Of a DNA stretch of 64,000 nucleotides, positions 272 to 62,187 are shown piece after piece (the first letter of the stretch is position 1; each line of letters starts with the position of its first letter). Source of the DNA: a virus. The stretch lies in the UHGV virus genome UHGV-1370948. One strand, given 5' to 3'. Both the position numbers and the translations under genes were made by a program. The notes beneath the pieces were generated by a model, which saw only the letters and a program-made list of their open reading frames with translations, ran no database searches and was not told the DNA's origin.

Positions 272-1813
272 ATGAGTATGTATGAAGTAGGCACCGTAAC
301 TGGTGCTGCAAATCAGGCGAAAGTGACCGGTGTAACGACTAAGTGGTCGCAGACCGCTCTTGGCGTTCAACAGGGTTCCATTCTTGTCGTGTATCGGAAC
401 GGGAGCGCGGACTTGTACGCGATTAAATCCGTCGACAGTGACACGCAGCTGACTCTTACCCGAAACATCACGACAGCGTTCTCTGGGGCGTCCTATGGCA
501 TTATCACATCAGAGACAGCCAGCACCTCCGCATTTGCAAACCAACTCGCCAGCGCCTTTTCTCTGTGGCGGAGTGTTGTTGAAGGATGGTCGACCGCGCT
601 GACGTCGACAGGTAACATTACAATGACTGATCCTATTACCGGAACGTCAGTTACTGTTCCTGCTATTAAGGGAATGGCGAAGCTTGCCGGAGGTAATAAT
701 TACACCGGCACACAAAGCCTGGATAGCGACGACTCAGGCTTCATTCTTGGAAAGAACGGCGATATTGGTCTGGTCAAGAAGAGCGGCACTTATGGGAAAG
801 TCATGGTTGGAAAATCATCTCGATTCTCAGTCGTTCGAAGTGATCAAGACCGGATATCGGCAACTGATGGGCAGACTGAAATTTTTGGCGTTGAAGCTAA
901 CGGTGACGTCAAAGTCGCGAATTCACTTTATGCCAAAGGCATTCTGCAAAGTGATTATCAGGTTAGATCGCAAAGTATCGAGCTTTCATTTTCCACGCCT
1001 TACATCGATTTTCATTATGGGAATAGCGCAGCCGACTATACTCATCGAATTATTGCGGATGATCCTGTGGCACTTGGTTTTGAATGCAGTATAAGAGTTT
1101 CCAAAAATATAAGAGCGCAAGAAGGTATAAAAGCAGATAAGTATGTACGCGCTGCGAGTAGAGCTGGTTTAATTGCGCAATATGACAGTGACCCCGGCGG
1201 AAATATCGGTGATATTCGAGTTGCCCCAATCTTGTGTAGCCAATTCGCAACTGTAGGCTCTGATGGAAACGGGAACGCTGGCGCGAATTTTTGGTTTGAG
1301 GAACACATAGGTTACAACCACCGTCTCGTTACCCAAGTCAAAGGGTATGGTGCATCCGTACAATACTGGCATCATCTCAGCGACGGAATGATCTGGAATA
1401 GTCAGCGAGGTGATGTAGCGTGGGCCGCAACTTCAGACAAAAACCTCAAGCATGATATTAAACCCACAGATGGATTACAGTCGCTGAAAAATATCAATGC
1501 CATGAAACTAGTTACTTTCATCTATAACGATGACGAGAGAGAGCGCCAGCGTCGAGGTGTGATTGCTCAGCAGCTTCAGAAAATTGACCCGTGCTACGTG
1601 AAGGTGAGTAAAGGTGTGGTAAACCGCCCAGCCATAAAGGATGATGAAGGTAATGAAATTGAACCAGAACATCAGGAGGTAATTGAAAAACTTGTGCTGG
1701 ACTCCAATCCTTTATTAATGGACGCTCTAAGTGCTATCCAGGTATTGTCGCGGGAGATTAGTGAACTCAGAGCTGAGAACAGAGATTTACGCGCATTTGT
1801 TCATTCTGAATAG
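272..1813 (+). CDS. tail fibre/tailspike protein with C-terminal intramolecular chaperone (peptidase S74-like) domain
   Basis: 513 aa; C-terminal segment (DKNLKHDIKP..LKNINAMKLVTFIYND..RQRRGVIAQQLQKIDP) matches the auto-cleaving chaperone module of endosialidase/L-shaped tail fibres. Confidence 0.7.
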   Translation: MSMYEVGTVTGAANQAKVTGVTTKWSQTALGVQQGSILVVYRNGSADLYAIKSVDSDTQLTLTRNITTAFSGASYGIITSETASTSAFANQLASAFSLWRSVVEGWSTALTSTGNITMTDPITGTSVTVPAIKGMAKLAGGNNYTGTQSLDSDDSGFILGKNGDIGLVKKSGTYGKVMVGKSSRFSVVRSDQDRISATDGQTEIFGVEANGDVKVANSLYAKGILQSDYQVRSQSIELSFSTPYIDFHYGNSAADYTHRIIADDPVALGFECSIRVSKNIRAQEGIKADKYVRAASRAGLIAQYDSDPGGNIGDIRVAPILCSQFATVGSDGNGNAGANFWFEEHIGYNHRLVTQVKGYGASVQYWHHLSDGMIWNSQRGDVAWAATSDKNLKHDIKPTDGLQSLKNINAMKLVTFIYNDDERERQRRGVIAQQLQKIDPCYVKVSKGVVNRPAIKDDEGNEIEPEHQEVIEKLVLDSNPLLMDALSAIQVLSREISELRAENRDLRAFVHSE

Positions 1814-1894
1814 TTAGTAAGTATTTACTTACTTTTATTTTGAACTGTGATATAACCGGGCGGATTTAGGTTTGACAGTCATGGAGGATTAACA

Positions 1895-2209
1895 ATGTCA
1901 AACGAGACGCCCGGTGTGAGCCACAAGGAAGTGGAACGCATTGCTCAAATCGTCGCACGAGAGGTTCTGCAAGGACTTCGTGACGAGGTTGGGGAAGAGG
2001 TGGATAAGCGACTGAAAGCGTACCTGGGAGATATGACCGCGACCCAGCACAGCATTCAGCACGCGAATCTGGACAAGCTACTGAACCGAATGGACGCCAT
2101 CTCAAGTGGGTTCTTCGGCGGTGTCGTGTCCAAAGTTACTTCTTTCCTGATCACCGCCTTGCTGCTGGGACTGGCAGCGTATGGCGTAAAAAGCGGCATT
2201 GGAAACTAA
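1895..2209 (+). CDS. small membrane protein (single C-terminal TM), possible holin
   Basis: 104 aa, strong RBS GGAGG, hydrophobic C-terminus; first gene of a lysis-like cluster. Confidence 0.3.
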   Translation: MSNETPGVSHKEVERIAQIVAREVLQGLRDEVGEEVDKRLKAYLGDMTATQHSIQHANLDKLLNRMDAISSGFFGGVVSKVTSFLITALLLGLAAYGVKSGIGN

Positions 2210-2912
2210 GGGGAAAAGGATGACTCCAAGAGGAATACGCAACAACAACCCAGGCAATCTGGACAACACGAATCCGTGGCAAGGTCTGATAGCTAACCCG
2301 GCAGAAAGTCGATTTGCTACCTTCAAAGACCCGACATGGGGTGTGCGTGCGCTGGCCGTTACGCTCATTACCTATCACGACAAGCGCAAAGCAAAAGACG
2401 GCTCACGAATCGACACGATCCGCGAAGTCATCGAACGCTGGGCGCCGCCGAGTGAAAACGACACCGAGGCGTATGTTCAGGCTGTCGCCAAAGCGGTAGG
2501 CGTTTCTCCTGATATGGAAATCGATCTGCATCAGTACGAGATTATGCGACCGACCGTTGAGGCAATCATTCGCCATGAGAACGGCAAAGGCCCGCTGCGA
2601 ACTGATAACACCTGGTACAACATCGACGTCATTGACGAAGGGTTGCGCCGGGCTGGTGTCGTTAAGCCCGTGAAGACCACCGCATCCATTCCGGTCACTA
2701 AGGAAACGGCCGGCGCAACCGTCACGGCAGGTATCGGTCTGGCGCAACTGGCCGACGTTGCTCCGCAGATCAGTGCGGCAATGGATAAGGCTCAGGGCAA
2801 TATTTCGAGCGGGGATACTGTTCGCATTGTCTTTGGGATCGCGACAATCGCCGTAGCGGTATTCATCGCCATAGCCCAGGTGCGGAAGTATCAGCGAGGA
2901 GTTGCGCAATGA
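2199..2912 (+). CDS. hypothetical protein with N-terminal GIRNNNPGN motif and C-terminal TM helix (candidate lysis/peptidoglycan-associated protein)
   Basis: 237 aa; translationally coupled (ATGA overlap) to downstream spanin. Confidence 0.3.
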   Translation: METKGKRMTPRGIRNNNPGNLDNTNPWQGLIANPAESRFATFKDPTWGVRALAVTLITYHDKRKAKDGSRIDTIREVIERWAPPSENDTEAYVQAVAKAVGVSPDMEIDLHQYEIMRPTVEAIIRHENGKGPLRTDNTWYNIDVIDEGLRRAGVVKPVKTTASIPVTKETAGATVTAGIGLAQLADVAPQISAAMDKAQGNISSGDTVRIVFGIATIAVAVFIAIAQVRKYQRGVAQ

Positions 2913-3160
2913 TTGAAGGCTTAATTGCCCGTATCAAAGCGTTCGTAATGACGGCTTCGGCCGTCATTGCGGTACTTTTTGGGGCGTATATTTTGGGTGG
3001 CCGCGCAGCTCGTCGATCGGCGGAGATTAAAAATCAACGTGAAGAGAATAAGCGGCTAAGCACGACTATTGAGGTAAAAAATGAAACGACTGATAAGATC
3101 AGGCGCATGGGTGATGGCGCTGTGGACGATGAGCTTTCTGCTAACTGGATGCGTGATTAA
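2909..3160 (+). CDS. i-spanin (Rz-like)
   Basis: 83 aa, N-terminal TM helix then charged coiled-coil periplasmic domain. Confidence 0.5.
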   Translation: MIEGLIARIKAFVMTASAVIAVLFGAYILGGRAARRSAEIKNQREENKRLSTTIEVKNETTDKIRRMGDGAVDDELSANWMRD

Positions 3161-3314: not shown

Positions 3315-3320
3315 AGAGAA

Positions 3321-3350: not shown

Positions 3351-3477
3351 AACATAGACCAGTATACGTCCAGTTAGTTGAATGGTTTTTGTTGTCACTA
3401 TACCTTGTTTGTTTTAGGCTATAAGAAACATAAGAAAACATCTTGTTTTCAAAATAAACAAACTACAAGGCATAATC

Positions 3478-4648: not shown

Positions 4649-4842
4649 TCTGGGGTGTTATTTGAAAGCCTTGCTCTGGTAGTTATTATATATCTCTTCT
4701 TTGTTTTTAAAACATAAAGGGGTATGACGGAAGCCAGAATCACCGCCTTGGGCCTCAAGCAAACAACCTGTCTTTTCCGCTTTCAAAACCCCACGCCAGC
4801 GTTTATCATCTCCCCAAAAAGTAAGTAAGAGCTTATTTAGGT

Positions 4843-5583: not shown

Positions 5584-5627
5584 ACATAATTAAGAAAACA
5601 AGTTGTTTAAAACAATAAGGAAAGCAC

Positions 5628-8243: not shown

Positions 8244-8305
8244 CCGTAAAAAAGATAAGCACTTACTTATCATTTTGTATAAGATTCATAAAAAAAGGAG
8301 AGCAC

Positions 8306-9217: not shown

Positions 9218-9301
9218 CAATCCCCTCGTAAAAAATCTTTCAAGCCTGCGCCAGAGCATTAGACTGGCGCAATGATAAGTAAACATTTACTATAAGTATC
9301 T

Positions 9302-11962: not shown

Positions 11963-12102
11963 ATGGGAGCTATCGCCGGGTTTCTACTCGGCGTAGTTGT
12001 TACCCACGATTTGATTAAGCAGGAAATTAAAACTGGCGTCATTTGCTTTGGGCGGCGCGTATATCGAGTGGTTCACTCAACTGACATAAGGAATGTTAAA
12101 TG
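11963..12102 (+). CDS. small membrane protein (paralogue of 11549..11749); not in supplied ORF track
   Basis: 46 aa MGAIAGFLLGVVVTHDLIKQEIKTGVICFGRRVYRVVHSTDIRNVK; TGA overlaps next ATG. Confidence 0.35.
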
Positions 12103-12351
12103 ACAGACTATATTTTGCTCGCATTTATTCTAGTTTGTATTTTTTACACCGTGACGAGAGCTGTATCTCGGATCGTCGATATGGTGACGGTTAAGTTTTT
12201 CGTTAATGACGACATGATGGAAAACGTCGTATCGAGGTTGATTAGCTTAACATCTCTCCGCTGGGATGGGATTCGAGACGATAGAAGTTATACTGTAACA
12301 ACAAAGGGTTACGTCGTAACCGTCAAAAAAAATAAAAACAAAGATAAATAA
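12100..12351 (+). CDS. hypothetical membrane protein
   Basis: 83 aa, N-terminal TM. Confidence 0.35.
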   Translation: MTDYILLAFILVCIFYTVTRAVSRIVDMVTVKFFVNDDMMENVVSRLISLTSLRWDGIRDDRSYTVTTKGYVVTVKKNKNKDK

Positions 12352-12407
12352 GTGTTTACTTATCTATAAGTTTTCACTAAGATTAACTCGTTTTCGACGT
12401 TAAGCAA

Positions 12408-12914: not shown

Positions 12915-13232
12915 TAACGGGTGTTTTCGTCAGAGTTTGTGATTTTTGCGGGTTTTAGAAACTGACCAAAAAAATAATCGCTAACGATGATGTAGTTCTG
13001 ATGGCGGCTTAACAGCCTATAAGTCAGTGAGGTCTTCCGATTCCTCATTAACAAATTCGGCGCACTGATCCGGTGTGATTACTAATGGATAGCAGAGACT
13101 TGCTGGTGAATAGGCGATACTGACCCACGTACCCTTAACCACGCGATAGAGTCAGACGGCGAGTCTCTGCGAACATGGGTGATGGCCTTTTAGTTTGTCG
13201 ATTAGCTGTGCATAGCGTCGGCGAGCGAAGTC

Positions 13233-13326
13233 TGGTGACTTAAAGGTTTATTCCGATGCCTGATGTGTGAAATGCAAATAGCATATTTGAGGCTGAGGAT
13301 TGCGGGTTCGATTCCCGCGTCACTCT
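13233..13326 (+). tRNA. tRNA-like sequence (canonical T-arm GCGGG-TTCGATT-CCCGC, imperfect acceptor; oversized, possibly degenerate)
   Basis: T-arm seen directly; rest does not fold canonically by eye. Confidence 0.25.
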
Positions 13327-13732
13327 CCCACGTTTCAGCTGTTTGGGTGGTTAGGAGCATTTTCAATAACCATATCCCGGTTTCAGTCCGCAACTGACCG
13401 CCCAAACAGCTGCGTCGTGTGTGATTACTTAATGTCTCATTTCATCTTGGGTTAATTTGAAATTGCGACGCAGCGCCTTTCTCAAAGCGTGTAGAAGGTT
13501 TTGAGAAAGTGCGTGCTAACGATCGGACTTTCTTCTGCTATTGATAGACTCGTTTAGAGCTTGATATGTAGGCCATAGCCCAGCCGGAGGTGGCGAACAC
13601 CGGCAGACTGAGATGTTAGTCGATTGAAGAGGTTTTTTCATCGCCTCGATCTTTACTCCAGGCCATCAAATATGCCTCCGCTGTTTGGTGACAGGCTCAG
13701 TCCGTTTCCTCTTAACGATAAAAGAGGTGCAA

Positions 13733-13815
13733 GCAAACAAAGCAGTCTGGTTGACTGCGGCCGAGGAAGACGTCTTATCCGGCAGAGAGTGGTTCGATTC
13801 CGCTTGTTTGCGCCA
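13733..13815 (+). tRNA. tRNA-like gene with encoded CCA (7/7 acceptor stem, D-arm, T-arm AGTGG-TTCGATT-CCGCT); anticodon loop carries ~7 extra nt
   Basis: Acceptor gcaaaca/tgtttgc, D-loop tctggttga, discriminator G + CCA at 13813-13815. Confidence 0.45.
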
Positions 13816-13851: not shown

Positions 13852-13925
13852 TACCCAATGCGACAAAACGGTAAGTCGAGAGGATGCTGAGTCCGATGAT
13901 GCAGGTTCGAGTCCTGCTTGGGTAA
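13852..13925 (+). tRNA. tRNA-like gene (7/7 acceptor tacccaa/ttgggta, D-arm cgac/gtcg, T-arm GCAGG-TTCGAGT-CCTGC), weak anticodon stem; no encoded CCA
   Basis: Folded by eye; anticodon loop tgctgag would give CUG (Gln) but position 33 is G. Confidence 0.4.
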
Positions 13926-14128
13926 CTTATCTAAGATGATGTGATTCCATACATCACTTAGTGTCGAGGTCTAAATGGTGCGGCCATCAACCGCATAAAC
14001 AGCCATTAGACCCGAGCCACAAGCCTCGTCTGGCACTAACGTAAAGTGCAAGTGACGTGAAATTCAGGTTGAACGGCCAGAAGAGTAGCGTTGCGAACCA
14101 TATAAATTAAACTACAAAGAGAAAACAC

Positions 14129-14740: not shown

Positions 14741-14867
14741 TTGTGGCCGTAGCCTCTTCGGAGGCTACAGCTTAAAGACTGATGGCGACATTGGCCTTTA
14801 AGCTGTACTTCGACCCACAGCAACCATTGAGCATCACGATAGACACTTTTTAGAGCAGATAATTAAA

Positions 14868-14888
14868 GGAGCCTCGCGGCTCCTTTTT
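14868..14888 (+). terminator. rho-independent terminator
   Basis: ggagcc-tcgc-ggctcc + TTTTT. Confidence 0.6.
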
Positions 14889-14970
14889 GCTATTTTTAAA
14901 ATAAGTAATGATTTACTTATCCAATGCAGTTATATTTATTGCGACACCTAACCATTTGAAAGGAATCAAA

Positions 14971-19041: not shown

Positions 19042-20255
<1,214 letters not shown>

Positions 20256-25324: not shown

Positions 25325-25372
25325 TTGACCTTATAGCTAAAATACCGTTAAATACTGTATATACATACAGTT
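25325..25372 (+). promoter_or_regulatory. sigma70-like promoter (TTGACC-17-TTAAAT) with near-consensus LexA box TACTGTATATACATACAGTT immediately upstream of integrase ATG
   Basis: CTGT-N8-ACAG SOS box at 25353-25372; -35 at 25325-25330, -10 at 25348-25353. Confidence 0.6.
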
Positions 25373-25374: not shown

Positions 25375-26421
25375 ATGGAGGCGGCGATGTTAAATTCGTT
25401 CGAGATCGATAAAGCTTTGGAAAATTGTTCTGCTGAAACAGTTCAATATCTCCAGCGCTGCCAAACCATGACCGGCTCACAAATGATGGCCATGGATGCC
25501 GATTCGAAATTCAGTGAAGCCTTTATGTTTTTCACGCGTTTATCACTCCTTGTGACTCGGCGGCGTCCTGAGCTGGGTGTTCACTGCATTCTCATTCACG
25601 CCATGCCGGTTATCGGCGACAAAAAAGTTTCGGACATCAACCGCCTCACAGTTAACAGACTAATTAATGCCTTGGTGTTGGATGGCAAGTTAGTACAAAG
25701 CCGGCGCGTTTTTTCTGTTTTAAAACAGTTCCTTGGGTGGTGTGAGTTCCAGGGCGTGATCGAGACTTCCCCACTTGGAGCGATGTCTCTTAACAAAGTT
25801 GCTGGCGGACTGAAGCCAAGACCTCGGGAGCGTGTGTTGTCGGATGATGAGCTGGAAAAATTTTGGCACATGTGGGACTTTGCCGATGTTTCAGAGAGCA
25901 CGCGTTGGGCCGCGCGTTTCGTGCTCTGCTCAGCCAGACGGCCGGATGAAGTGCTCCGGGCTAAACGAGCTGAATTCGATCTCAATAATGATGTATGGAA
26001 TCAGGGTAGTAGGAATAAGTCTGGTCGTGAACATTCACTACCCATTAGCCCCATAATGAAGCTGTGCATTAATAAAATGATGGCCGCAGCCGGGAATAGC
26101 GAGTGGCTAGTTCCCTCCCCAAAGAATGAGACGAAGCCTGCATCCAAGGTTCTGATAGCTCAGGCATCAAGAAGAATTATGAGTAGAGATTATCTTTCCG
26201 ATAACATCCCGGCCCCCTTCGAAATCAGAGATTTACGAAGAACGGCCAGAAGCACACTCTCTCGACTTGGTGTAGAGCAAGACGTGGCTCGTAAAATCAT
26301 GAACCACAGTCTTGAGGGAATAGATCGCGTCTATGACAGACACGACTATCTTGACCGAATGTCCGAGGCAATGTCAGCATACTCTGAATTCTTAATTGAA
26401 ACATGTAAGATCAATCAGTAA
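25375..26421 (+). CDS. int: tyrosine site-specific recombinase/integrase
   Basis: C-terminal catalytic R..HxxR..Y pattern (RDLRRTARSTL..HS..Y). Confidence 0.8.
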   Translation: MEAAMLNSFEIDKALENCSAETVQYLQRCQTMTGSQMMAMDADSKFSEAFMFFTRLSLLVTRRRPELGVHCILIHAMPVIGDKKVSDINRLTVNRLINALVLDGKLVQSRRVFSVLKQFLGWCEFQGVIETSPLGAMSLNKVAGGLKPRPRERVLSDDELEKFWHMWDFADVSESTRWAARFVLCSARRPDEVLRAKRAEFDLNNDVWNQGSRNKSGREHSLPISPIMKLCINKMMAAAGNSEWLVPSPKNETKPASKVLIAQASRRIMSRDYLSDNIPAPFEIRDLRRTARSTLSRLGVEQDVARKIMNHSLEGIDRVYDRHDYLDRMSEAMSAYSEFLIETCKINQ

Positions 26422-26716
26422 TACCTAACTTACTCTTCAGAGCATCATTTTCATTCTTTATTTTTTTAACAAATTCATAGATTTCGGGGAATCTCTCGGA
26501 TAAGTACATCATCATAAAATCGTCTGGCGGCGCACCAACAGCTCTCGCGAATGGGATGACCTTGTCTAACGAAAGATGAGCACGGCCAGATTTGATGAGA
26601 GAAATGTTGTTAGCGTTCTCAAATCCAACTTCTTTTGCAATCTGAGCTTGTGTTTTGCCACAGGTGAGCATCGCTGCGGTCATAAACGGACGGTAACGCC
26701 CTTTGGGTTCGTACAT
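26411..26716 (-). CDS. XRE/Cro-type helix-turn-helix regulator
   Basis: QAQIAKEVGFENANNISLIKSG HTH; convergent with and overlapping integrase 3' end. Confidence 0.55.
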   Translation of the reverse strand: MYEPKGRYRPFMTAAMLTCGKTQAQIAKEVGFENANNISLIKSGRAHLSLDKVIPFARAVGAPPDDFMMMYLSERFPEIYEFVKKIKNENDALKSKLGITD

Positions 26717-34905: not shown

Positions 34906-35070
34906 ATGGATTTAACCATTCCAATGTTCGTTTTAGCCTACTTAATCGCTGGCATCGGTTTCGCGAAAATCTGGTCTGAAGCGGCGAGTTGCGGTGATGT
35001 TGAGCTGAAGATAATCGGCTGCATCTTCTGGCCGATTGGACTGTTTGTTAGCGCTTTCTGGAGCTGGTAA
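34906..35070 (+). CDS. small membrane protein (54 aa) not in ORF track
   Basis: MDLTIPMFVLAYLIAGIGF..IIGCIFWPIGLFVSAFWSW; two TM-like segments; TAATG overlap with next gene. Confidence 0.35.
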   Translation: MDLTIPMFVLAYLIAGIGFAKIWSEAASCGDVELKIIGCIFWPIGLFVSAFWSW

Positions 35071-35510: not shown

Positions 35511-35576
35511 TAATAAGTGATCGCTTATCTATCATAACCAAGTGCAATAAAAGCCATTAACAATAAAGGAAAACAC

Positions 35577-38935: not shown

Positions 38936-39661
38936 TCAGTCGCTCTCTTTACTTCCCTTTCTAACACCAACTTTAGAGAAATGACCATACATTGCGCCAA
39001 GGCTGGCAAATGGAAATTTTTCGCCCATTTGAGACCGAATGTCCTTGCCTGTATATTCGCCAGATGCCCACATATCAGTACATACAGCTCTAAGTTGAAC
39101 ACGAGGATTTACCGGTTTCGGTTTAGGGGGCTTCTCACGAGGTTTTCTCGGATGCTCAGGTACGATGCCATTTTTCTTAAACCAGCGTCTAAGTGCGCCG
39201 ACGTTTTTCATACCTAACTCGGGAGAGAGTTCATCAAAGATTTGTCGGGTTGTGTGCTGGCCGGCTTTCCTTAATTCCACGGCTCTTTCTCTCAAAATTG
39301 CTCGCGGATTCTTCGGAGCGTCGGTCGACTCCGAGTTTCTTACGTATCCATTTTGCCGGAACCAGAAAAGAAGAGATTCCTTGCGCTGTATACCCAGACG
39401 GCCTTTAAACATTTCAAGTAATTCGGGGGCGCTATACAGACCTGAAATCCATAACTCGGCAGCTTTATGCCTGTTTTCATTAATTTTTTCTTTGGACTTG
39501 GAGCCTCGGATCGTGCCTTGTGATGAAAGCCAATGAACGAGTTCAGCTGAAGAACTCATGCCCATTCGTTTTCCTAACACCATAAGGATCATGTCAGCAT
39601 CAAAGGCCCCATTCTCCCATAGCTCAATGGCTTTTAACCCCGCCAACTCTCTGTCTGTCAT
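38936..39661 (-). CDS. DNA-binding protein built of four ~45-aa helix-turn-helix-like repeats
   Basis: Internal repeats LW.SG.YS..EL...F..RLG....SL..WF..NG.V x4; one of only three minus-strand genes. Confidence 0.4.
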   Translation of the reverse strand: MTDRELAGLKAIELWENGAFDADMILMVLGKRMGMSSSAELVHWLSSQGTIRGSKSKEKINENRHKAAELWISGLYSAPELLEMFKGRLGIQRKESLLFWFRQNGYVRNSESTDAPKNPRAILRERAVELRKAGQHTTRQIFDELSPELGMKNVGALRRWFKKNGIVPEHPRKPREKPPKPKPVNPRVQLRAVCTDMWASGEYTGKDIRSQMGEKFPFASLGAMYGHFSKVGVRKGSKESD

Positions 39662-39783
39662 TCGTCTTCCCGGCCGTTAAAACGATCATGGTATGCAGGA
39701 TAAAAACAGGGTTCAACATGTTTTGCTTGATGATAAGTAAGCGCTTATCTATTATGTGTAAGCTTTTCAACAAGAGAAAACAC

Positions 39784-39996: not shown

Positions 39997-40120
39997 AAAA
40001 CAGTGACATTGCAGAGTAATAGGTAAGTAGAAAGATAATTCTGTGACCGCGTAACATTTTTGATTCACCTCAATTAAGAACATAAGATAACAACTTGTTT
40101 ATTACAACAAAGGAAAACAC

Positions 40121-40393
40121 ATGAAAGCCTTATTACACGTCCACGCTTCACTGAACTCTTCGTACTCCCCCTATTCCATTCTGGAATTTCCTGAAGGGAC
40201 GGACGAAGATCAGCTTCAATCCTTGGCCATTAAATTTCTTCCGTCTCTTTACGGTGACGAGGAAACCGTTTTCGTTGACGAGGACGGTGTTTGCTGGAAC
40301 AACGGAGAGTGTTGGTATATCGAGGACTTACGTCTCATTAGTGAAGAAGACGCGGCGCACTTGACCCGTATTCTGGGCATTTCCACGCTCTAA
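40121..40393 (+). CDS. hypothetical acidic protein
   Basis: 90 aa, consensus TIR. Confidence 0.4.
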   Translation: MKALLHVHASLNSSYSPYSILEFPEGTDEDQLQSLAIKFLPSLYGDEETVFVDEDGVCWNNGECWYIEDLRLISEEDAAHLTRILGISTL

Positions 40394-40427
40394 ATAATAA
40401 GTAGACATTTATTTAATGAGGTGTAAT

Positions 40428-41136: not shown

Positions 41137-41244
41137 CATTAGATAAATTGTTAGTGGTTACTAACCCTTTGATATCAACATCTCACAGGTTAGTAACCAC
41201 TAGGGGGCTAAATGGAACCCTCTAAAAATGAATCCTGATCGAAG

Positions 41245-41501
41245 TCACCGCTGACGGCATAGTGTACCGCTAACAGCATATCAATTACCGCTGGTAACAT
41301 ACATTGAGCCGCTGACAGCATATCCACAACCGCTGACAGCATACGAAATAAAAAAGCCCTCTATTCGAGGGCTTAAATTTGGTGTGAATAAACGATTCCA
41401 GACCTTCCTAATCACCGCTGACAGCATATCTAATAGTCAAATCACCGCTGGCAGCATACCATTTGCCGTTCACAGCATATATTGCACCGCTCAGAGCATA
41501 T
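41245..41501. repeat. nine direct iterons (consensus ~CACCGCTGACAGCATA) downstream of repA (incA-like)
   Basis: Copies at 41245, 41265, 41287, 41308, 41329, 41412, 41442, 41464, 41486; hairpin 41354-41374 splits the array. Confidence 0.8.
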
Positions 41502-42613
41502 CAAAGCAACTTCAGACCGTTACTAAGTATCTCAATTAGCTTTATATTCTCAGGCGTCAAATCTGCAGAAAGTTCAGCTATCTTCTTGATCATGTTTTGT
41601 TTTACGACGTCCAGCTCGCCGCTCTCTTGTGGCCCTTCCACTTGCTCTGCAGGCTTCTCAGGCTTCGACGGTTTCTCTTCACCAATGACTTTAAGTTTCG
41701 GGTTGCGTCCATGAATCTGAATAAATACAGAGCGACCACGCTTCACCTCTGAGTAATCGAGGTAGCCAAGCTCTTTAAGAGACTTCAGACCGTTTCGAAT
41801 GGTCTGATTTTGGGAGCTGATGCTTGAGCTATTCAGATTCAACCTCGCACGCAAACGAGCCAGAGATATTGGCGCCGGCCGCGCCGGAAGACTTTCAATG
41901 AAGGTGTATAGCGCCTGGGCGGTTTCTTTACGTGGAAGTTTGTTGATGACCTTCAGTTGGAGAAGAACTTTGTGGTCAAACCGGTATAGCTCTGACAGCT
42001 TTGGTTCGGCGTGAAATATGATGGTGTTATTTTTCTCATTGTAATCCACGCTATTCACCAGATGAACCATGAGCAGAGATATCTTGTTCGAGCCGTCCAC
42101 GTTCTTCTCTTCGTATGTGCGCTGGAACGAAAGCGTTGTGCGCATTATCTTCAGCAGGCTGTTCGTAATCCTGTCTCGCAGCGTCTTGCGTATCTGGGAA
42201 GATGGATACCCACAGAACTTGGCAAACTTCGTGATGCTTAGCTCAACGCGCCCACTGGCCTCCCCATACTCGGCAAGTGATCGGACGACACCAACCCACG
42301 TCTTGAAGTCGTGATCCATATCGAGACGTGGACCGGTTATTTTGATATCGGAATAACCCTCAGATCTCGCAACCTCCAGTTGCACCAGTTCTTTTGAGGC
42401 GTCTATCTGGTTGGAGTTATTTCGTTTACTATTCTTCGTGCCTTTGAGCGTGGGAACGAACAATCCAAGTCTCATCAACGCAATGGGTTGTACGGTATTG
42501 TTGCTGTTAGGGGTGAGGTCGCCTGTGAATAACGCCGGAACACTTTCGTCGATCGCGTCATCATCATCGATTAACGGTATGTTTTCTTTCTTCTTTTTTT
42601 TGCCTGTGGACAT
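41501..42613 (-). CDS. repA: iteron-binding replication initiator RepA (P1 RepA-like)
   Basis: NSNNTVQPIALMRLGLFVP and YTFIESLP segments recalled from P1 RepA; flanked by iterons on both sides. Confidence 0.65.
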   Translation of the reverse strand: MSTGKKKKKENIPLIDDDDAIDESVPALFTGDLTPNSNNTVQPIALMRLGLFVPTLKGTKNSKRNNSNQIDASKELVQLEVARSEGYSDIKITGPRLDMDHDFKTWVGVVRSLAEYGEASGRVELSITKFAKFCGYPSSQIRKTLRDRITNSLLKIMRTTLSFQRTYEEKNVDGSNKISLLMVHLVNSVDYNEKNNTIIFHAEPKLSELYRFDHKVLLQLKVINKLPRKETAQALYTFIESLPARPAPISLARLRARLNLNSSSISSQNQTIRNGLKSLKELGYLDYSEVKRGRSVFIQIHGRNPKLKVIGEEKPSKPEKPAEQVEGPQESGELDVVKQNMIKKIAELSADLTPENIKLIEILSNGLKLL

Positions 42614-42632
42614 GTGGACACCTCATTGCTTA

Positions 42633-42734
42633 AACCGCTGGTAGCATACTTCATTTACCGTTAGCAGCATACACAAAACAGTCCACAGCATATCGCACGC
42701 CGCTCGCAGCATATATTTTTCCGCTGACAGCATA
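42633..42734. repeat. five direct iterons upstream of repA (origin iterons)
   Basis: Copies at 42633, 42656, 42679, 42698, 42720. Confidence 0.75.
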
Positions 42735-42775
42735 CGCCAATGGTCTTTCAGAGCAGGCGTGGCGCGGGTTGCGAG

Positions 42776-43577: not shown

Positions 43578-43812
43578 CCGCGCATATTCCTCCCCCTCCG
43601 CTATTGTGAGGGGTTTTCTCGCCCAACCCAAACATTCCCCCAACTTAATCACAAAACCTCACTGAGAGCGTCTGGTGGCCTCGCTCCTTCCTTTATGATG
43701 AAAAATAGATAAGCATTTACTTATCTAATGGTGTTTAATATGCACCTGATGAAGTCGCTTGGTGGCCTGTTAACCCACTCTATCATCGAATAAAACAACA
43801 ACAGGAAAACAC

Positions 43813-44898
43813 ATGAAAACGATATACGGTGTGATTTCAGACCCACACTATCATAGCTGGTCTGCGTTCTCGACAATCAGCGTCAGCGGTCTGAATTCTC
43901 GTTTAAAAATTCAGCTCGATGCAACCATCGAGGCGGCAAAAGCGATCAAAGCTTCTGGCGCAAAATACATGTTTGTTGCCGGCGACACATTCCATACGCG
44001 CGGCTCTATAACGCCTTCCGTACTCCACTTCGTCACTGAAGCATACAAAACCATCATTAACGAAATCGGTCTGGAAGTCTGGATGCTGGCAGGCAATCAC
44101 GATCTGGAAACCAATGACTCAGTATTTTCGGCAAATGCGGCAGCATCATTGCAGTCAATTGGCGTAAACATCGTTTGTGGCCCGGCCCAGAGCGTGAAAA
44201 TTGATGATGTAACAGTCCACTTTATCAGCTGGCGTAACAGTCATGCCGAACTGCTGGCGGATATGAAATCGCTTCGTGAGAAAGCTGGTGCCGGAATCCA
44301 CGACATCGTGATCCACACAGGTATCAACAAAGCCATTCCGACAATGCCAGACGTTGGCATTGAGGCGAATGATTTGAAGGAACTCGGCTTCCGTCTGGTT
44401 CTTTCCGGCCACTATCACAATCACAAAGAGATAATCCCTGGTGTCGTGTCAGTCGGTGCGTTAACCCACCAGAATTGGGGCGACGTTGGTACGTTGGCCG
44501 GGTTCATGTTGGTTCAGGAAGACGGTTCATTCACGCAGCACGAAACATCGGCACCGAAGTTTGTATCTCTGGAAGGCGATGTGACTGAAGACGATATTCG
44601 CGGCAATTATGTTCGCTATCGCGCAGTCATTGAGAACGACGCCGAGGCAGTGCAAATAAAAGAGCAACTGGCGACGCTGGGTGCCGCGGGTGTTGTGACA
44701 AATCTCATCAAAAAAGCGTCGATGATGGCTGGAACTGCAAGCACCGAATCCACCAGCAAAATCGACAGTCTCTCTGAATCAATCAGTGCCTACTGCAAGG
44801 TTGTCCACGATACGGATGGCGGCTTCGATCTGGCTAAGCTCGACTCACTATGCAACGAAATCCTATTAGAAGCGGAAAGCGCGGGGACGTCTGAATGA
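43813..44898 (+). CDS. Mre11/SbcD-family nuclease
   Basis: Metallophosphoesterase motifs GDTFH, GNHD. Confidence 0.8.
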   Translation: MKTIYGVISDPHYHSWSAFSTISVSGLNSRLKIQLDATIEAAKAIKASGAKYMFVAGDTFHTRGSITPSVLHFVTEAYKTIINEIGLEVWMLAGNHDLETNDSVFSANAAASLQSIGVNIVCGPAQSVKIDDVTVHFISWRNSHAELLADMKSLREKAGAGIHDIVIHTGINKAIPTMPDVGIEANDLKELGFRLVLSGHYHNHKEIIPGVVSVGALTHQNWGDVGTLAGFMLVQEDGSFTQHETSAPKFVSLEGDVTEDDIRGNYVRYRAVIENDAEAVQIKEQLATLGAAGVVTNLIKKASMMAGTASTESTSKIDSLSESISAYCKVVHDTDGGFDLAKLDSLCNEILLEAESAGTSE

Positions 44899-48088: not shown

Positions 48089-48128
48089 GTTAGCTTTATT
48101 GATAAGTAAGAGTTTACTTATTACTATA

Positions 48129-48158
48129 GGCCACTACATTTAGTGGCCTTTTTCTTTT
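48129..48158 (+). terminator. rho-independent terminator
   Basis: ggccact-acattt-agtggcc + T-run. Confidence 0.6.
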
Positions 48159-53092: not shown

Positions 53093-53195
53093 AAAAGATG
53101 AATTATGCCTTGATAAGTAAATACTTATTGATGTATATTCTTTCCCGCCTTGTATTATTTTGTTTTGCTTAAACACCACCCCGTAAGAACCTTAG

Positions 53196-53228
53196 CGGTC
53201 GGCCATTTGGTCGACCGTTTTTTTTTCT
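53196..53228 (+). terminator. rho-independent terminator
   Basis: cggtcggcc-attt-ggtcgaccg + T9. Confidence 0.65.
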
Positions 53229-53287
53229 GCAATACCTCTTGTTGTTGTGTAAAATAAGTAAATCATTACTTACCAACGAGAGACGAA

Positions 53288-54794: not shown

Positions 54795-55273
54795 GAATGA
54801 TAGCGGCCGTTGGCCGAAATTTTGAAATAGGCAGAGGAAATGATCTGCCTTGGAAATGCCCCGCAGAACTGAGTCTCTTCAGACAGTTGACGCATGGGTT
54901 CACCGTAATCATGGGCAGAAAAACAGCCGAGAGTCTGGGTAAGGCATTGCCGGGTCGACGCAACGTAATGCTGACACGTTCACCAGCTGTAGTGGCGCCT
55001 CAAGGCATCCAGAACGCCTCAGTCGAACGCTGTTTGCGCGAGTTCCCCAATGCGTGGGTTATCGGTGGCGCCGTCGTGTATGAGGTGATGCTTCCGCATG
55101 TGACGGAAATTTGGCTGAGCCATATCAATATTGAAGTGCCGGATGCAGACGCTTTCTTCCCGTTTGAAGCAATGCGTCAGATGGGTTTTGAAGCGGTTGA
55201 TAAGGTGAATGAATTTGCTGGTGATGAGAATTCACCATCGTTTAAACAAATTGTTTACAGGAAGTTGAAATGA
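54791..55273 (+). CDS. folA: dihydrofolate reductase
   Basis: MRMIAAVGRNFEIGRGNDLPW, VIMGRKT, GRRNVMLT. Confidence 0.85.
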   Translation: MRMIAAVGRNFEIGRGNDLPWKCPAELSLFRQLTHGFTVIMGRKTAESLGKALPGRRNVMLTRSPAVVAPQGIQNASVERCLREFPNAWVIGGAVVYEVMLPHVTEIWLSHINIEVPDADAFFPFEAMRQMGFEAVDKVNEFAGDENSPSFKQIVYRKLK

Positions 55274-56962: not shown

Positions 56963-57064
56963 TATGCCTCAAAACAAGATGTTTACCTGATTGATTTATC
57001 TTTTATGCCTGCTGTCGCATGTCAAAATAACTTCATTGAAACGATTACAACAAAGGAAAAACAC

Positions 57065-58587: not shown

Positions 58588-59673
58588 ATGAAAGAGCAAA
58601 TAGACCTAGCAATAAAAGAAGATAAGATTTTTTTTCTTGGTAAAAAATTACAAGATGATTGGTATCAGGCTTTTGCTGAGTGGTCTGATATAGCCCGGAA
58701 GGATAATAATCCTGAAGCATATTTCAATATGGCGTATTGCTATTTAACAAGCAATGGAACCAAAAAAAATATAGAGAAGGCTATTGAATATTATGAACTT
58801 GCTGGCTCATTAGGTTTAAATGAAGCCTACACTCACGCTTACAAAGCAAGAGCGGAATATATTTTCAAGGATGACATTAATGATTATATTTCTTATCTAG
58901 AATCTTTGAAAGAAAAGGGTGTTTGGAGTCATGACCCTGACGAAAAAGGGTGCAGAACTTATTTTTCTTGTGAGCACGAAGCATTGCAATTTCAGGATGT
59001 TATGATACAACTCTCACTGAGATCATCGCCTGGCGATAGAGCGGCAAAAGCTAAAGAGCTGCGGGGAAAATATAAGGCCCACTACATAAATTTGGTTTTA
59101 GATCATTTCATTGCAATATCTGAAGTTTCAGCTGAAGTGGAGTACAGAGAATCAAAAATTAGCCACCTAGAACATAAAGGAAGAATACATAAAGGCAATT
59201 CATTGTTAAGCACAAGATATTCATATAAGGTTGAATATTTGGCTAAGCTAAAAAATAATGGCAAGGGAGATGCACATTTTGATTTTACATTCCGCGCTGC
59301 GAATATGGCAGAGATGAAGGCAGCACATGACAAAGACCCACTCAATGGGTTGAACAAGCTGTATACAAAAATCTCCAATATAATGTTAAAGCCAGGGGAG
59401 CAGGTAGAGAAAATATTGGTAACTGATTTGCCAGTAAAAAACCTGAGTTCAAACTGCGTAAACTTTTCTTATGATTTTAAAAGAAATTTTGAGAGGTATT
59501 ACGTGTCAAGTAGTTATAGAGGCTATATCACCTATGATTTTGACATCAAACCTGGGAGTATTTCAGTTGTCAGAAAGGCAAGTGAAACTGAAAAATATAA
59601 GATAAAGCAATTTATAGCTTATGCGGTAGTGATCTTGGGTATCTATCTCTACATAAAGCACTTATTGGGTTGA
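58588..59673 (+). CDS. Sel1/TPR-like repeat protein with C-terminal TM anchor, low GC
   Basis: Repeated A.Y..G.G....A..YY.LAG motifs; C-terminal FIAYAVVILGIYLYIKHLLG. Confidence 0.45.
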   Translation: MKEQIDLAIKEDKIFFLGKKLQDDWYQAFAEWSDIARKDNNPEAYFNMAYCYLTSNGTKKNIEKAIEYYELAGSLGLNEAYTHAYKARAEYIFKDDINDYISYLESLKEKGVWSHDPDEKGCRTYFSCEHEALQFQDVMIQLSLRSSPGDRAAKAKELRGKYKAHYINLVLDHFIAISEVSAEVEYRESKISHLEHKGRIHKGNSLLSTRYSYKVEYLAKLKNNGKGDAHFDFTFRAANMAEMKAAHDKDPLNGLNKLYTKISNIMLKPGEQVEKILVTDLPVKNLSSNCVNFSYDFKRNFERYYVSSSYRGYITYDFDIKPGSISVVRKASETEKYKIKQFIAYAVVILGIYLYIKHLLG

Positions 59674-59872
59674 ACACTCCTAGGCCGTTCCACTACTTTG
59701 CCAGACTTTCTAAAAAGCCCCATGTGGGCTTTTTCTCTTGACTAGCACCATCGCATCACTCACCACAGAAAAACGCGATCCCGAGCGTTACAGAGAAGAT
59801 CCCGATACGCCCTCTTGTCAGTTACAATTAATCCTGTAAAATAAGTAAGCATCTACCTATTTAAGTTATCCA

Positions 59873-60661: not shown

Positions 60662-60886
60662 ATGACTTATGAAACAAACATCGTCGCCCTGGCGGAGAAC
60701 GAATTTCTGGACAACACTCGGAAGCTGATGGAGAAGCGAGATACGGCCTTTAGTCTTTATCAATGGGTCGTTGATAGTCTGCGTGAAGGAAAACACACTG
60801 AAGAGATTGGGATGCTGGTTGGCGACCTGATTAACTCAAACTTTGCTCTTGAGGTGCAGCTCAAGGGTCGTTCTGAGGCTCGATGA
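60662..60886 (+). CDS. hypothetical protein
   Basis: 74-aa ORF. Confidence 0.35.
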   Translation: MTYETNIVALAENEFLDNTRKLMEKRDTAFSLYQWVVDSLREGKHTEEIGMLVGDLINSNFALEVQLKGRSEAR

Positions 60887-60936
60887 TAAGTAATTATTTA
60901 CTTATAAATATCTGGCATGTATCATTGCTGGGCTAC

Positions 60937-60966
60937 CAATGGTAGCCCAAATTTTTTAGCAGCCAA
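60937..60966 (+). terminator. rho-independent terminator
   Basis: gggctacc-aat-ggtagccc + aaaTTTTTT. Confidence 0.6.
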
Positions 60967-61365
60967 GCTAACACAAAATGGCAACGACACCAGTCTCTCG
61001 GTGAGAAACGGTCGGGACTGGTGGAGCAGTAAAGAACCTTGAGCAAGCGCTCTTGGGAAGGCCCAGACGGGATTTGTAGCATAGGGTCTGTATTGCCGGT
61101 GTGGACGCGAAGTGGTAACTCGCGTCGGTTGAGGGCAAAAGCTACAGGGCTGTGAGACAGGGGGAGCGACTTAGATACCTGACTCACAGAATAAAAGCTC
61201 AACCATTAAATTCTAAGAGGAACCTATACGAGTAAGCCCTTTCCACGAGAATGAAAGTGCTTACCAGTAGGGGGAGTTGCTGGACTTACGCCTAACTTTT
61301 TCGATTAAAAAGACACTGATTCGACCGAACCGTTAAACAATATGGGTCGAAGTTTTTTTAACGAA
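60966..61365 (+). ncRNA. candidate structured non-coding RNA (ORF-free, multiple stable hairpins, terminal hairpin+T-run at ~61323-61365)
   Basis: No plausible ORF on either strand; nested hairpins gacgcga..tcgcgtc, gtaagc-ctttc..gaaag-gcttac, ttcgacc..ggtcgaa+T7. Confidence 0.3.
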
Positions 61366-61467
61366 ATCGTTAGGATAAGTATGTCCAGCAGCCCCTACCG
61401 AGAAGATTAAAAACATCAGCGAAACGGCGAAACAGAGAAGCGTAAGGCAACGAACTGGAAAGGCGAA

Positions 61468-62037
61468 ATGGCGAAAAAACCAACAAAACAAAAAGGCATC
61501 AAATACAACCGGCAGAAACATATCTCTGACAAAAACATGGCGACAAAATTTGACCCGCGTTTGAAAGAGGTTGTTCTGTATACGGACGGATCATGCCTGA
61601 AGAACCCAGGCGGTGCTGGTGGAGTTGCGGCCATCGTTCGTTTTGGCGAACACTATAAAACAGTTCAAGAAGGTTTTCGCTCCACAACCAATAACCGCAT
61701 GGAAATGCTCGCTGCGATCCGAGGGTTGGATCTACTTAATCAAAAATGCAACGTGACGATCTACACGGATAGCCAGTACCTAATTAATGGCATTTCGCTG
61801 TGGATTAAAGGTTGGAAAAAGCGCGGCTGGAAGCTGGCGAACGGTGAGCGGGTTAAAAATGTGGATCTCTGGCAGGAGCTGGATGCTGCGGTATCCGGTC
61901 ATCGTGTCCGTTGGTGTTGGGTTAAAGGTCATGATGGAAACCCAGACAATGAGCTGTGCGACATGATGGCGCGATCGGCTGCTGAATCGCCAACGATGGT
62001 TGATCGTATTTACGAATCTATTTGTGCCTATAATTAA
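61468..62037 (+). CDS. rnhA: ribonuclease HI
   Basis: LYTDGSCLKNPGGAGG, TTNNRMEMLAAI, WVKGHDGNPDNELCDMMAR collinear with E. coli RNase HI; basic N-terminal extension. Confidence 0.8.
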   Translation: MAKKPTKQKGIKYNRQKHISDKNMATKFDPRLKEVVLYTDGSCLKNPGGAGGVAAIVRFGEHYKTVQEGFRSTTNNRMEMLAAIRGLDLLNQKCNVTIYTDSQYLINGISLWIKGWKKRGWKLANGERVKNVDLWQELDAAVSGHRVRWCWVKGHDGNPDNELCDMMARSAAESPTMVDRIYESICAYN

Positions 62038-62187
62038 TAAGTAAGTGTTTACTTATTCGCTGGCGTGTTGTATCTTTGGTCTGCAAGGATGATAGCGCGG
62101 TTAGCGCTTGTCTCATGGAAGAGACGACCTGTAAGCGGCTGAGTTTTCTCAGCCGCAACTATTTTAAGGCTCCTGTTAAGAGGCTTT

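Follow-up and report, generated by a model that had tools for sequence, protein, structure and literature searches.

In the plasmid-prophage of P1, silencing is achieved by one repressor, C1, which acts on at least 17 scattered operators, each located on the promoter of a separate operon. In this work, we analyzed a 64,000-nucleotide (nt) stretch of the virus genome UHGV-1370948 (called below, at its full length, the window), a Klebsiella phage-plasmid in which a first-pass annotation had noticed a highly recurrent palindrome. Most probably, this palindrome is an 18-bp operator of a dimeric, phage-encoded repressor, for which an XRE-type protein is the most likely candidate; the binding itself is predicted. 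Like the C1 operators, the copies are many and are dispersed over a plasmid-prophage at separate operons (31 sites in the complete 115.6-kb relative described below, known from sequence). The P1 operators, however, are asymmetric 17-mers, and C1 belongs to another protein family, whereas here the site is a symmetric 18-mer and the candidate binder is a 101-aa XRE-type protein. Moreover, P1 controls its late genes indirectly, via Lpa, whereas here the predicted operators are also found within the virion-gene block. A C1 homologue is not annotated, though no search aimed at C1 was made.

Other described systems resemble this one in part. The CI and Cro proteins of lambda, 434 and P22 are small helix-turn-helix (HTH) dimers that use 14-18-bp palindromes placed on sigma70 -35/-10 elements, with operators by the repressor gene, and the same arrangement is predicted here; unlike the lambdoid phages, which have about six operators at one immunity region and use antitermination, the present element carries about 30 sites over 110 kb, and an S24 peptidase domain is absent. 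The KorA and KorB proteins of RK2/RP4 also coordinate many operons through short palindromic operators spread over a plasmid (seven OA and 12 OB in RK2), but KorB is a ParB-family protein able to act from a distance, whereas here the sites lie in predicted core promoters and the putative DNA-reading segment of a ParB-like protein shows no co-variation with the operator. The LexA boxes of the SOS response are likewise 16-20-bp palindromes situated at varying registers in tens of otherwise normal promoters; LexA, by contrast, is host-encoded and self-cleaving, and the genuine LexA box of the window (25353-25372) is a different sequence. The C proteins of restriction-modification systems and Stl of SaPI share the XRE fold with our candidate and are dimers acting on palindromic promoter operators, but the C proteins serve one local operon, and their likeness to the model of the candidate is at the fold level only. 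Finally, the bacterial TetR operators TAAGTAAG-YR-CTTACTTA have identical arms and often lie between the -35 and -10 boxes of TTGACA...TAcaAT promoters. They differ in being single sites beside a TetR gene, with a YR centre, and the phage-plasmids lack a TetR homologue, so that this resemblance is probably due to convergence. By the features tested, the palindrome is not a member of the P1 C1, KorB, TetR or any Rfam family; by analogy, its mode of action may be that of P1's dispersed C1 operators or of a LexA-type regulon, with an XRE/Cro-CI-type protein and a symmetric operator in the lambdoid style.

The origin of the window was evident from its relatives. Megablast placed it among Klebsiella plasmids of about 110 kb, and pKqq_SB1124_3 (NZ_CP084809.1, 115.6 kb, below Kq) is 99.5-99.8% identical to it over most of its length. 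According to the annotation of the Kq record, of the E. coli phage Cyrano and of the Salmonella phage SSU5, the window is an SSU5-supergroup phage-plasmid of the Klebsiella pKpn type. The element combines siphovirus structural genes with T4-like replication and recombination genes (a gp32-like single-stranded-DNA-binding protein, UvsX/Y/W-like and SbcCD-like proteins), nrdAB, thymidylate synthase, a RepFIB-type replicon and accessory modules, and almost all genes of the window lie on the plus strand. The SSU5 supergroup is the largest phage-plasmid set known, and SSU5 itself, obtained as a free phage, has been put forward for phage cocktails (PMC7969092). The supergroup includes the Klebsiella pKpn-type, Salmonella pHCM2-type and Yersinia pestis pMT1-type plasmids. 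In the searchable literature, we found nothing on how its lysogeny is controlled or on its promoters and operators (a 2026 phage-plasmid preprint deals with an unrelated 49-kb element), so that the control circuit proposed here is not previously described for this medically relevant family.

A common 18-bp register, TARRTAAG-NN-CTTAYYTA, was found to fit every site (TGATAAGTAAGAGTTTACTTATTA is an example of a 24-mer containing it). When up to two mismatches were allowed, this 18-mer was found 16 times in the window, 16 of 16 copies being intergenic, as compared to a mean of 0.25 in shuffled sequences; with up to three mismatches there were 30 matches (27 intergenic) vs. 2.35 in shuffles. Even with up to four mismatches, 26 of the 36 distinct sites were intergenic, while intergenic DNA makes up 13.8% of the window (binomial 3e-15). 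The 22-mer GATAAGTAANNNTTTACTTATC gave 14 strand-matches at nine loci with no more than three mismatches (0.02 expected), and the exact sequence ATAAGTAA occurred 19 times (1.4 expected). Altogether, the window holds 21 credible copies, and 18 of its 45 intergenic gaps of at least 40 nt contain a site; the complete relative Kq has 31 copies, the virion-gene block included, vs. about 2-4 in shuffles. When 77 sites of three genomes were aligned, each arm proved to be built of 4-bp periodic units and the information content to be equal on both arms, while no flanking position past the immediate A/T flank reached 0.3 bits in a profile extending from 30 nt upstream to 45 nt downstream. The periodicity of the arms explains why half-site gaps of 2, 6 and 10 are enriched; two spacing classes (16-bp and 20-bp) were considered on the basis of these gaps, and the single 18-mer register covers them all.

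These data clearly support the recurrence and the intergenic enrichment of the palindrome reported in the first-pass annotation, where all the listed copies are indeed intergenic and nearly all positions are correct. Three of them had to be amended: 8264-8281 covers only the right arm of the true site at 8252-8269, 62042-62068 is shifted relative to the true site at 62038-62055, and 29364-29380 is not palindromic, being a lone half-site or a -10-like box (TATAAGTAT). The "two direct copies" at 26742-26800 are two sites, but degenerate variants (26749 with 0+4 mismatches and 26784 with 1+1, where the figures refer to the left and the right arm vs. TARRTAAG-NN-CTTAYYTA), while the related palindrome at 27280-27318 does have an operator-like core, enclosed in a perfect palindrome with 14-bp arms. 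The location 0-60 nt upstream of a start codon, ascribed to most copies, applies to about 13 of the 19 sites but not to the remainder. A location just after a terminator, said to be frequent, was seen at three or four sites only (14902, 29334, 53255, 9276); at 48103, 60887, 53114 and 62038 the order is reversed, the site preceding the terminator.

The palindrome appeared to be deeply conserved. The same consensus is found in Cyrano (about 30 sites) and SSU5 (about 28), in which the helicases are about 68% identical to those of the window and the intergenic DNA has diverged. In all three genomes, the sites precede the lysis cassette, the helicase block, the cobS-like, uvsY-like, gp32-like and sbcD-like genes, nrdA, thyX, the methylase gene and the ParB-like gene; other shared positions are the terL-portal junction, a place within the 3' end of the portal gene, and the intervals that follow the major capsid gene and the tail gene M or precede the major tail gene. 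A pattern scan of IMG/VR detected the motif in more than 100 SSU5-like contigs, and also in relatives with 56-64% GC, whose proteins are 30-55% identical and where the AT-rich core (A/G)TAAGTAAG-NN-CTTACTTA(T/C) is sharply visible. For instance, the Rhizobium beringeri plasmid pRlX6 (60% GC, proteins about 40% identical) has 33 sites vs. at most one in shuffles.

The Acinetobacter baumannii plasmid NZ_CP027608 (L298, the AB-group) has the same gene order but lacks the TAAGTAAG motif within positions 1-50000. Instead, it bears GATCAGTCAGTACTGACT (TCAGTCAG-TA-CTGACTGA; (G/A)ATCAGTCAGTACTGACT), with 17 sites per 50 kb vs. 0-2 in shuffles. These sites occupy equivalent junctions and again lie within promoter spacers, e.g., TTGAAA-18-TATACT, and the palindrome is often directly followed by ATACT of the -10 box TATACT. 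The arms of both versions can be generalized as TNAGTNAG, where N is A in the enterobacterial and Rhizobium elements and C in Acinetobacter. The host phylogeny is not tracked, as Enterobacteria and Rhizobium share one version and Acinetobacter has another; the motif thus follows the lineage of the element, which argues for an element-encoded factor and against a host protein. Two IMG/VR contigs with a GC content of about 0.55 (L292 and L295) have no TAAGTAAG sites in the 6 kb seen, and local palindromes present there, such as GTGAC-N7-GTCAC and AGTCAC-TT-GTGACT, may represent a third version of the operator; their XRE homologue has Lys at the position corresponding to Asn34 of the window protein. 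In the high-GC loci (L024, L061, L086 and others), a box (C)GCTATAAG recurs, in several cases fused to the left arm of the operator; it is probably the -10 element in the Rhizobium-type relatives. Orientation classes assigned by open reading frames (ORFs) are unreliable in these loci because of spurious long ORFs.

The promoter context was evaluated with an approximate sigma70 position weight matrix (PWM), scored within 45 nt on either side of each site, the opposite strand serving as a control for the composition of the palindrome. A predicted promoter with a score of at least 9 was found at 46 of the 77 sites in the three genomes on the gene strand vs. 12 of 77 on the opposite strand (mean 9.39 vs. 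7.05), and in the window at 13 of 21 vs. 1 of 21. An independent scan tool also flagged promoters at 35507, 39727, 48099, 53110, 59815 and 60897. The dyad centres range from -45 to +2 relative to the predicted starts and fall into three main registers. At -17 to -26, the palindrome sits in a 17-bp spacer; at -32 to -37, it lies over the -35 box, so that the right arm TTTACT is itself the -35 hexamer; at +1.5, the -10 box overlaps the left arm and the dyad is just beyond. Some predicted promoters are conserved in all three genomes, such as TTGAAA-17-TATGAT within the portal gene and TTGATA-17-TA(C/A)(T/C)AT before nrdA. The flanks are directional, the downstream side being rich in -10-like boxes, ribosome-binding sites and start codons, and the upstream side in A-tracts.

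No conservation at a constant offset, as in a phage promoter class of fixed geometry, was seen in the -30 to +45 nt profile. This accords with the earlier view that the palindrome is not a pure -35/-10 element, and it speaks against the other suggestion made at that stage, a phage-specific promoter class, because the palindrome is found inside ordinary sigma70-like promoters at varied registers (spacer, -35, -10/+1). Such variation is the pattern of an operator rather than of a promoter element. A protein bound at any of the three registers would occlude RNA polymerase, and registers compatible with occlusion, in combination with already good hexamers, are typical of a repressor operator; neither an activator site nor a special class of promoter would be expected to look like this. 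A T4-like late promoter was also considered, TATAAGTA being likened to TATAAATA, and set aside, as the sites are strictly palindromic and a gp55-like gene is not annotated.

The most likely binder, judging from sequence comparison, is an XRE-type helix-turn-helix protein of 101 aa (WP_048255567.1) encoded at 26411-26716 on the minus strand, which we propose as the repressor on the basis of its fold, its distribution and the adjoining operators. The XRE regulator had already been named as a possible binder, and it is the best candidate found. Its matches to the Pfam families HTH_31 and HTH_3 are below the curated cut-offs (21.3 bits vs. 27 and 19.4 vs. 23), and a profile comparison matched it to the XRE-type domain 2kpj (E=0.0013). 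The AlphaFold model (pLDDT 87) shows the HTH helices at residues 22-29 and 35-42, the latter being the recognition helix, and its Foldseek neighbours are Stl, C.BclI, C.AhdI and DdrO (E about 0.01, 16-21% identity). A word-indexed protein search returned only homologues with at least 81% identity. Homologues are encoded in 866 PLSDB plasmids, with genus counts about equal to those of the core CobS-like marker (Klebsiella 347/347, Enterobacter 92/92, Yersinia 63/63, Salmonella 49/49). Among the phage records, the gene is present in all lysogen-derived phage-plasmids and absent only from the free phage SSU5, which has no integrase-regulator module in the interval from the tRNA to the cobT-like gene. 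The gene order regulator, small ORF, cobT-like, MoxR-like is kept as far as Rhizobium and Acinetobacter.

Furthermore, three or four operator-like sites surround the XRE gene in each of the five lineages examined. In the window, the variant sites 26749 and 26784 lie 30-90 nt 5' of its start codon, and equivalent sites beside the homologue are found in Cyrano (GGTAAGTGCTTACC), in L290, L248, L024 and L294, in the Rhizobium L299 and in the Acinetobacter L298. Variant operators in its own control region suggest that the XRE protein is autoregulated. Usually, Asn contacts adenine and Arg contacts guanine in DNA. The residue at the start of helix 3 (the Asn34 position) is Asn in all seven sequences that go with TAAG arms (enterobacterial and Rhizobium-type) and Arg in Acinetobacter, where the arms are CAGT; given these usual contacts, the replacement of Asn by Arg would match the operator's change from A.T to C.G. 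Lysogens of Cyrano transcribe the homologue, which its annotators regarded as the putative repressor (PMC9928086).

Other candidate binders were rejected. The reverse-strand "4xHTH" gene at 38936-39661, put forward in the first-pass annotation along with the XRE regulator, has no Pfam match and no homologue in Cyrano or SSU5, and since both of these carry the motif, its product was discarded. For the FljA-like repressor (PF03614), the 88-aa winged-helix protein, orf71 and the Cra-like protein, no homologue was detected in the Rhizobium plasmid with its 33 sites.

A near-consensus LexA box (TACTGTATATACATACAGTT) is located at 25353-25372, just 5' of the gene for the integrase (25387-26421), which at its 3' end converges on and overlaps the minus-strand XRE gene. 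SOS-driven convergent transcription could lower the expression of the repressor. Ciprofloxacin induces Cyrano (PMC9928086).

The mechanism that we propose is that most copies are built into the cores of separate sigma70-type promoters, all facing in the direction of the lytic genes, which serve replication, recombination, nucleotide metabolism, lysis and virion structure. A bound protein would shut out the host RNA polymerase, such that one repressor would silence the whole lytic programme, i.e., about 30 promoters, for as long as the element is propagated as a plasmid; without the repressor, all these promoters would be freed. In a more specific form, which we offer only tentatively, the 101-aa XRE repressor alone may directly gate about 30 sigma70 promoters over 110 kb, for early, replication, lysis and virion genes alike, in a flat one-tier switch, with an operator that is identical from Enterobacteriaceae to Rhizobium and that may have been re-coded in Acinetobacter (with C in place of A in every 4-bp unit of the two arms) along with the Asn-to-Arg change. 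If true, this would be a natural genome-wide case of a repressor and its operators shifting specificity jointly, and the Acinetobacter version would provide a natural protein-DNA specificity pair for studying the co-change of a repressor and 20-30 operators. The operator map and the named candidate offer a testable regulon, predicted starts and a handle for inducing or curing such elements.

Several observations weigh against repression by the XRE protein at these sites. About 40% of the sites have no good predicted promoter, and both promoters and starts are predictions; the sites 4822, 9276 and 34890 overlap a ribosome-binding site or a start codon instead, and the order capsid stop codon, palindrome, GC-rich terminator, which is kept from the Klebsiella to the Rhizobium-type elements, shows no evident promoter. 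At such sites the palindrome might act as a roadblock, take part in looping or belong to a weak promoter, and some copies could have a role at the RNA level. As to the binder, the match to the consensus is worst for the operators closest to the XRE gene, only one lineage change underlies the Asn-to-Arg correlation, and the XRE proteins that share the operator are only 26-48% identical. A ParB-like pair is as universal as the XRE protein and always has a site just upstream. SSU5 has the sites without the XRE gene, which would fit a phage devoid of its repressor.

We weighed the proposed operator against other explanations, among them an RNA hairpin in polycistronic transcripts that would, for instance, direct their processing or stability, serve as a translational operator or load an antiterminator. 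With nearly all genes on one strand, every copy would be transcribed given read-through; many copies are at or just past a stop codon or on a ribosome-binding site, the capsid-terminator arrangement mentioned above is conserved, and the outermost R/Y pair (2/21) covaries modestly (p=0.0008). Nevertheless, lineages whose proteins are about 40% identical have kept the sequence rather than the pairing. Among 145 distinct sites, departures at the core positions affect a single arm without compensation in the other, A.C mismatches included; for example, pair 6/17 (G/C) shows 27+15 single-arm changes vs. two double ones, none of them complementary. The predicted hairpins are weak and uneven (-1.9 to -7.2 kcal/mol), and a shuffle test revealed no flank complementarity beyond the first position; a stem extension seen by eye in high-GC relatives was gone in this test save for the first flanking position. 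Rfam gave no family at the sites, the scan of the window yielding a tRNA only. Single-arm changes, weak hairpins, the lack of flank pairing and the symmetric information fit a dimeric protein reading double-stranded DNA, as had been supposed from the dyad symmetry at the outset, and make a hairpin function improbable. A positive promoter element for a phage activator or a sigma-like factor in middle or late transcription, comparable to the inverted repeat of the Lpa-dependent late promoters of P1, is somewhat less improbable. Some sites do take the -35 position beside -10-like boxes where a good -35 hexamer is lacking, the lysis promoter combines a dyad centre at about -40 with an extended -10, TATAAG/TAAGAT boxes are found 4-20 nt downstream of 14 sites vs. 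three in a mirrored control, and sites occur throughout the virion gene block. Yet the positions relative to the predicted start vary from -45 to +2, no flanking element stands at a fixed distance, and many sites fill the 17-bp spacer or cover the -10/+1 region of near-consensus promoters (TTGAAA-17-TATGAT, TTGATA-17-TATCAT), where an activator would be unworkable.

If the palindrome is a DNA operator, its binder might still be another core protein, such as the ParB-like pair encoded outside the window (Kq 91146-92517), acting as a KorB-like silencer or in parS-like partition or condensation; this is unlikely, yet of the alternatives it is the one to which we give most credit. The ParB_N-domain pair is conserved in each lineage examined, including Rhizobium and Acinetobacter, and a palindrome lies 6-25 nt 5' of the first ParB-like gene in all TAAG lineages examined (Kq, Cyrano, SSU5, L040, L061). 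However, the C-terminal segment of ParB1 (H-x-x-MRFK; ribbon-helix-helix-like by eye) is invariant across the TAAG and CAGT lineages, staying the same where the operator differs, the set of genes that Cyrano transcribes as a lysogen lacks the ParB-like genes (PMC9928086), the sites lie within core promoters and not at a distance from them, and a partition role leaves the conservation at particular gene junctions unexplained. Very improbable, finally, is a host factor, e.g., a TetR-family regulator with the same operator, or the absence of any dedicated binder, the copies being mobile promoter cassettes or recombination hotspots. The identical 18-mer TAAGTAAG-YR-CTTACTTA does adjoin autoregulated TetR-family genes in 55 of 120 bacterial loci (L124-L243) from many phyla (Acidobacteriota, Bacillota, Bacteroidota, Actinomycetota, Proteobacteria), and HNH and GIY-YIG endonuclease genes and variable accessory genes adjoin some of the phage sites. 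But a profile built from the 55 TetR proteins hit no ORF of the phage-plasmids in hmmsearch (E<=1), the YR centre bias of the bacterial sites is lacking at the phage sites, the motif goes with the element lineage rather than with the host, and the sites are conserved at orthologous core-gene junctions, not just beside variable genes. In a by-eye comparison with the consensus sequences of host Fur, IHF, DnaA, TyrR and FNR, none was seen to fit, and the motif does not follow the host phylogeny. A resemblance to the SlmA site was likewise considered and set aside.

Returning to the predicted operators, we describe below the individual copies in the window. The site TTAGTAAG-ta-TTTACTTA (1814-1831; 1+1) lies on the tail-fibre stop codon, 5' of the lysis cassette (ATG 1895); its counterpart precedes the holin gene in Cyrano and SSU5, and a conserved extended -10 box, TGTGATATAA(A/C) at 1846-1856, puts the dyad centre at about -40. 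The perfect copy TAAGTAAG-ag-CTTATTTA (4822-4839; 0+0) ends 3 nt short of ATG 4843, which starts the first gene of the helicase/primase block; it is orthologous to Cyrano 31296 and SSU5 33600, and a good sigma70-like promoter is not predicted there. Between the primase gene and ATG 8306 lies AAGATAAG-ca-CTTACTTA (8252-8269; 1+0), followed by a box, gTATAAGAT/TGTAAGAAT, that is kept in Kq, Cyrano and SSU5. The site TAAGTAAA-ca-TTTACTAT (9276-9293; 1+3, PWM 20.6) is 8 nt 5' of ATG 9302. At 12345-12362, TAAATAAG-tg-TTTACTTA (0+1) occupies the stop codon of ORF 12100-12351, 5' of the HNH endonuclease gene, and its right arm provides the -35 hexamer of a predicted promoter, TTTACT(12355)-17-TAAGAT (score 10.9), conserved at Cyrano 38252 and SSU5 41773. 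The copy TAAGTAAT-ga-TTTACTTA (14902-14919; 1+1) comes after a terminator (14865-14886) and 5' of phoH, with a promoter score of 9.2.

The divergent region between the XRE gene and orf72 contains the degenerate operator 26749-26766, good in the left arm only (PWM 12.9) and located 33 nt 5' of the XRE start, and the variant TAAGTAAT-ca-CATATTTA at 26784-26801. Ten nucleotides 5' of the cobT-like ATG 27323 is the core ATAATAAG-ca-TTTATTTA (27295-27312; 2+1, PWM 20.5), which is enclosed by a perfect inverted repeat (27284-27318) with the 14-bp arms ATACCCATAAATAA and TTATTTATGGGTAT, far longer than in the other copies; the repeat stops 4 nt 5' of the start codon, and promoter-like sites are nearby at 27258 and 27270. 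The site TAAGTAAA-ta-CTTATTTC (29334-29351; 1+1) separates the cobT-like from the cobS/MoxR-like gene and has a TATATAAG box downstream, kept in Cyrano and SSU5. At 34890-34907, TAAGTAAG-ga-TTTACTAT (0+3) covers the ribosome-binding site and ATG 34906, and no promoter is predicted. The operator at 35514-35531 lies in the spacer of TTGATA(35507)-17-TATCAT (10/12 in the tool scan, PWM 13.8), 5' of the gene for the gp32-like single-stranded-DNA-binding protein, whose product matches Pfam gp32 at 3e-39. Similarly, TAAGTAAG-cg-CTTATCTA (39734-39751; 0+0) is in the spacer of TTGATG(39727)-17-TATTAT, and the orthologous promoters of Cyrano and SSU5 read TTGAAA-17-TATCAT. The copy TAAGTAGA-ca-TTTATTTA (40398-40415; 2+1) comes right after the stop codon of ORF 40121-40393, by a promoter-like TAGACA-16-TAATAT, and TAGATAAG-ca-TTTACTTA (43706-43723; 0+1) is 5' of the sbcD-like gene (ATG 43813), with orthologous sites at Cyrano 63195 and SSU5 63080.

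Further downstream, the operator 48103-48120 (0+1) is in the spacer of the nrdA promoter TTGATA(48099)-17-TACTAT, conserved as TTGATA-17-TAACAT in Cyrano and SSU5, and the operator 53114-53131 is in that of TTGATA(53110)-18-TATATT (10/12, score 13.8), which is followed about 60 nt on by a terminator (53194-53219). The site TAAGTAAA-tc-ATTACTTA (53255-53272; 1+1) is 15 nt 5' of the thymidylate synthase ATG 53288; its left arm shares nucleotides with the -10 box TAAAAT, giving a dyad centre at +1.5. The same centre is seen at 59842-59859, where the operator begins at the -10 box of TTGTCA(59815)-16-TAAAAT (10/12, score 13.9), 5' of the adenine methyltransferase gene. The copy TAAGTAAT-ta-TTTACTTA (60887-60904; 1+1) lies on the stop codon of ORF 60662-60886, its right arm being the -35 hexamer of TTTACT(60897)-17-TATCAT, and TAAGTAAG-tg-TTTACTTA (62038-62055; 0+1) lies at the stop codon of the RNase H-like gene, with TTTACT-17-TATCTT scoring 10.3; it is orthologous to Cyrano 79651 and SSU5 79904.

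For the operator-bearing promoters, transcript starts are predicted near 1863, 12390, 35542, 39762, 48134, 53146, 53262, 59849, 60932 and 62083. Several of these promoters have further features. The predicted starts near 48134 and 60932 are located in the 5' arms of the terminators of the upstream genes (48128-48149 and 60929-60949), and a start at such a place is predicted to let read-through be stopped, while the local transcript, without a complete hairpin, escapes. The segment 53146-53225 is a candidate small RNA or leader (fold z-score -3.4), the operator-bearing promoter at 53110-53139 having a strong terminator (53194-53219) about 60 nt further on; this layout is conserved at Cyrano 72462 and SSU5 72361. 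The 581-nt stretch 60907-61467, 3' of an operator-bearing promoter, has neither a convincing ORF nor an Rfam match, and its Cyrano counterpart holds a tiny gene, CYRAN_81, expressed in lysogens.

A second palindrome, AAACAANTTGTTT, has eight matches with no more than one mismatch in the window vs. 0.4 expected (3436-3448, 5596-5608, 33225-33237, 33250-33262, 40088-40100, 55244-55256, 56972-56984 and 62710-62722). It is usually 15-30 nt 5' of a start codon, is also found before the cobT-like gene in SSU5 and Cyrano, and may be either a second operator or one that acts on translation. A very stereotyped translation start, AAAGGAAAACAC-ATG, is common to more than 12 genes, e.g., at 29397-29412, 33268-33283, 35564-35579, 40108-40123 and 43800-43815. 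The plasmid-maintenance region, in which iteron arrays (CCGCTGACAGCATA-like; 41137-41383 and 42614-42768) flank the minus-strand replication initiator gene (41501-42613), has zero copies of the operator.

Other features of the element include a long non-coding stretch at 12915-13687, with a tRNA-like T-arm fragment, GGTTCGATTCCCGC, near 13400, followed by tRNA-Phe (13733-13815) and tRNA-Gln (13852-13926), of which Rfam confirms tRNA-Gln only. As compared to NZ_CP084809.1, the window differs in part of the hsdS type I specificity region and lacks an ISKpn26 copy (19640-20109, 59444-59451). The first ParB-like protein (NZ_CP084809.1 91146-91859) and its homologues have, in addition to the ParB_N domain, a conserved C-terminal motif, H-x-x-MRFKV ... 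NAGDALV-L. In Pyrinomonadaceae, a DUF883 gene is found on the far side of the TetR-type 18-mer.

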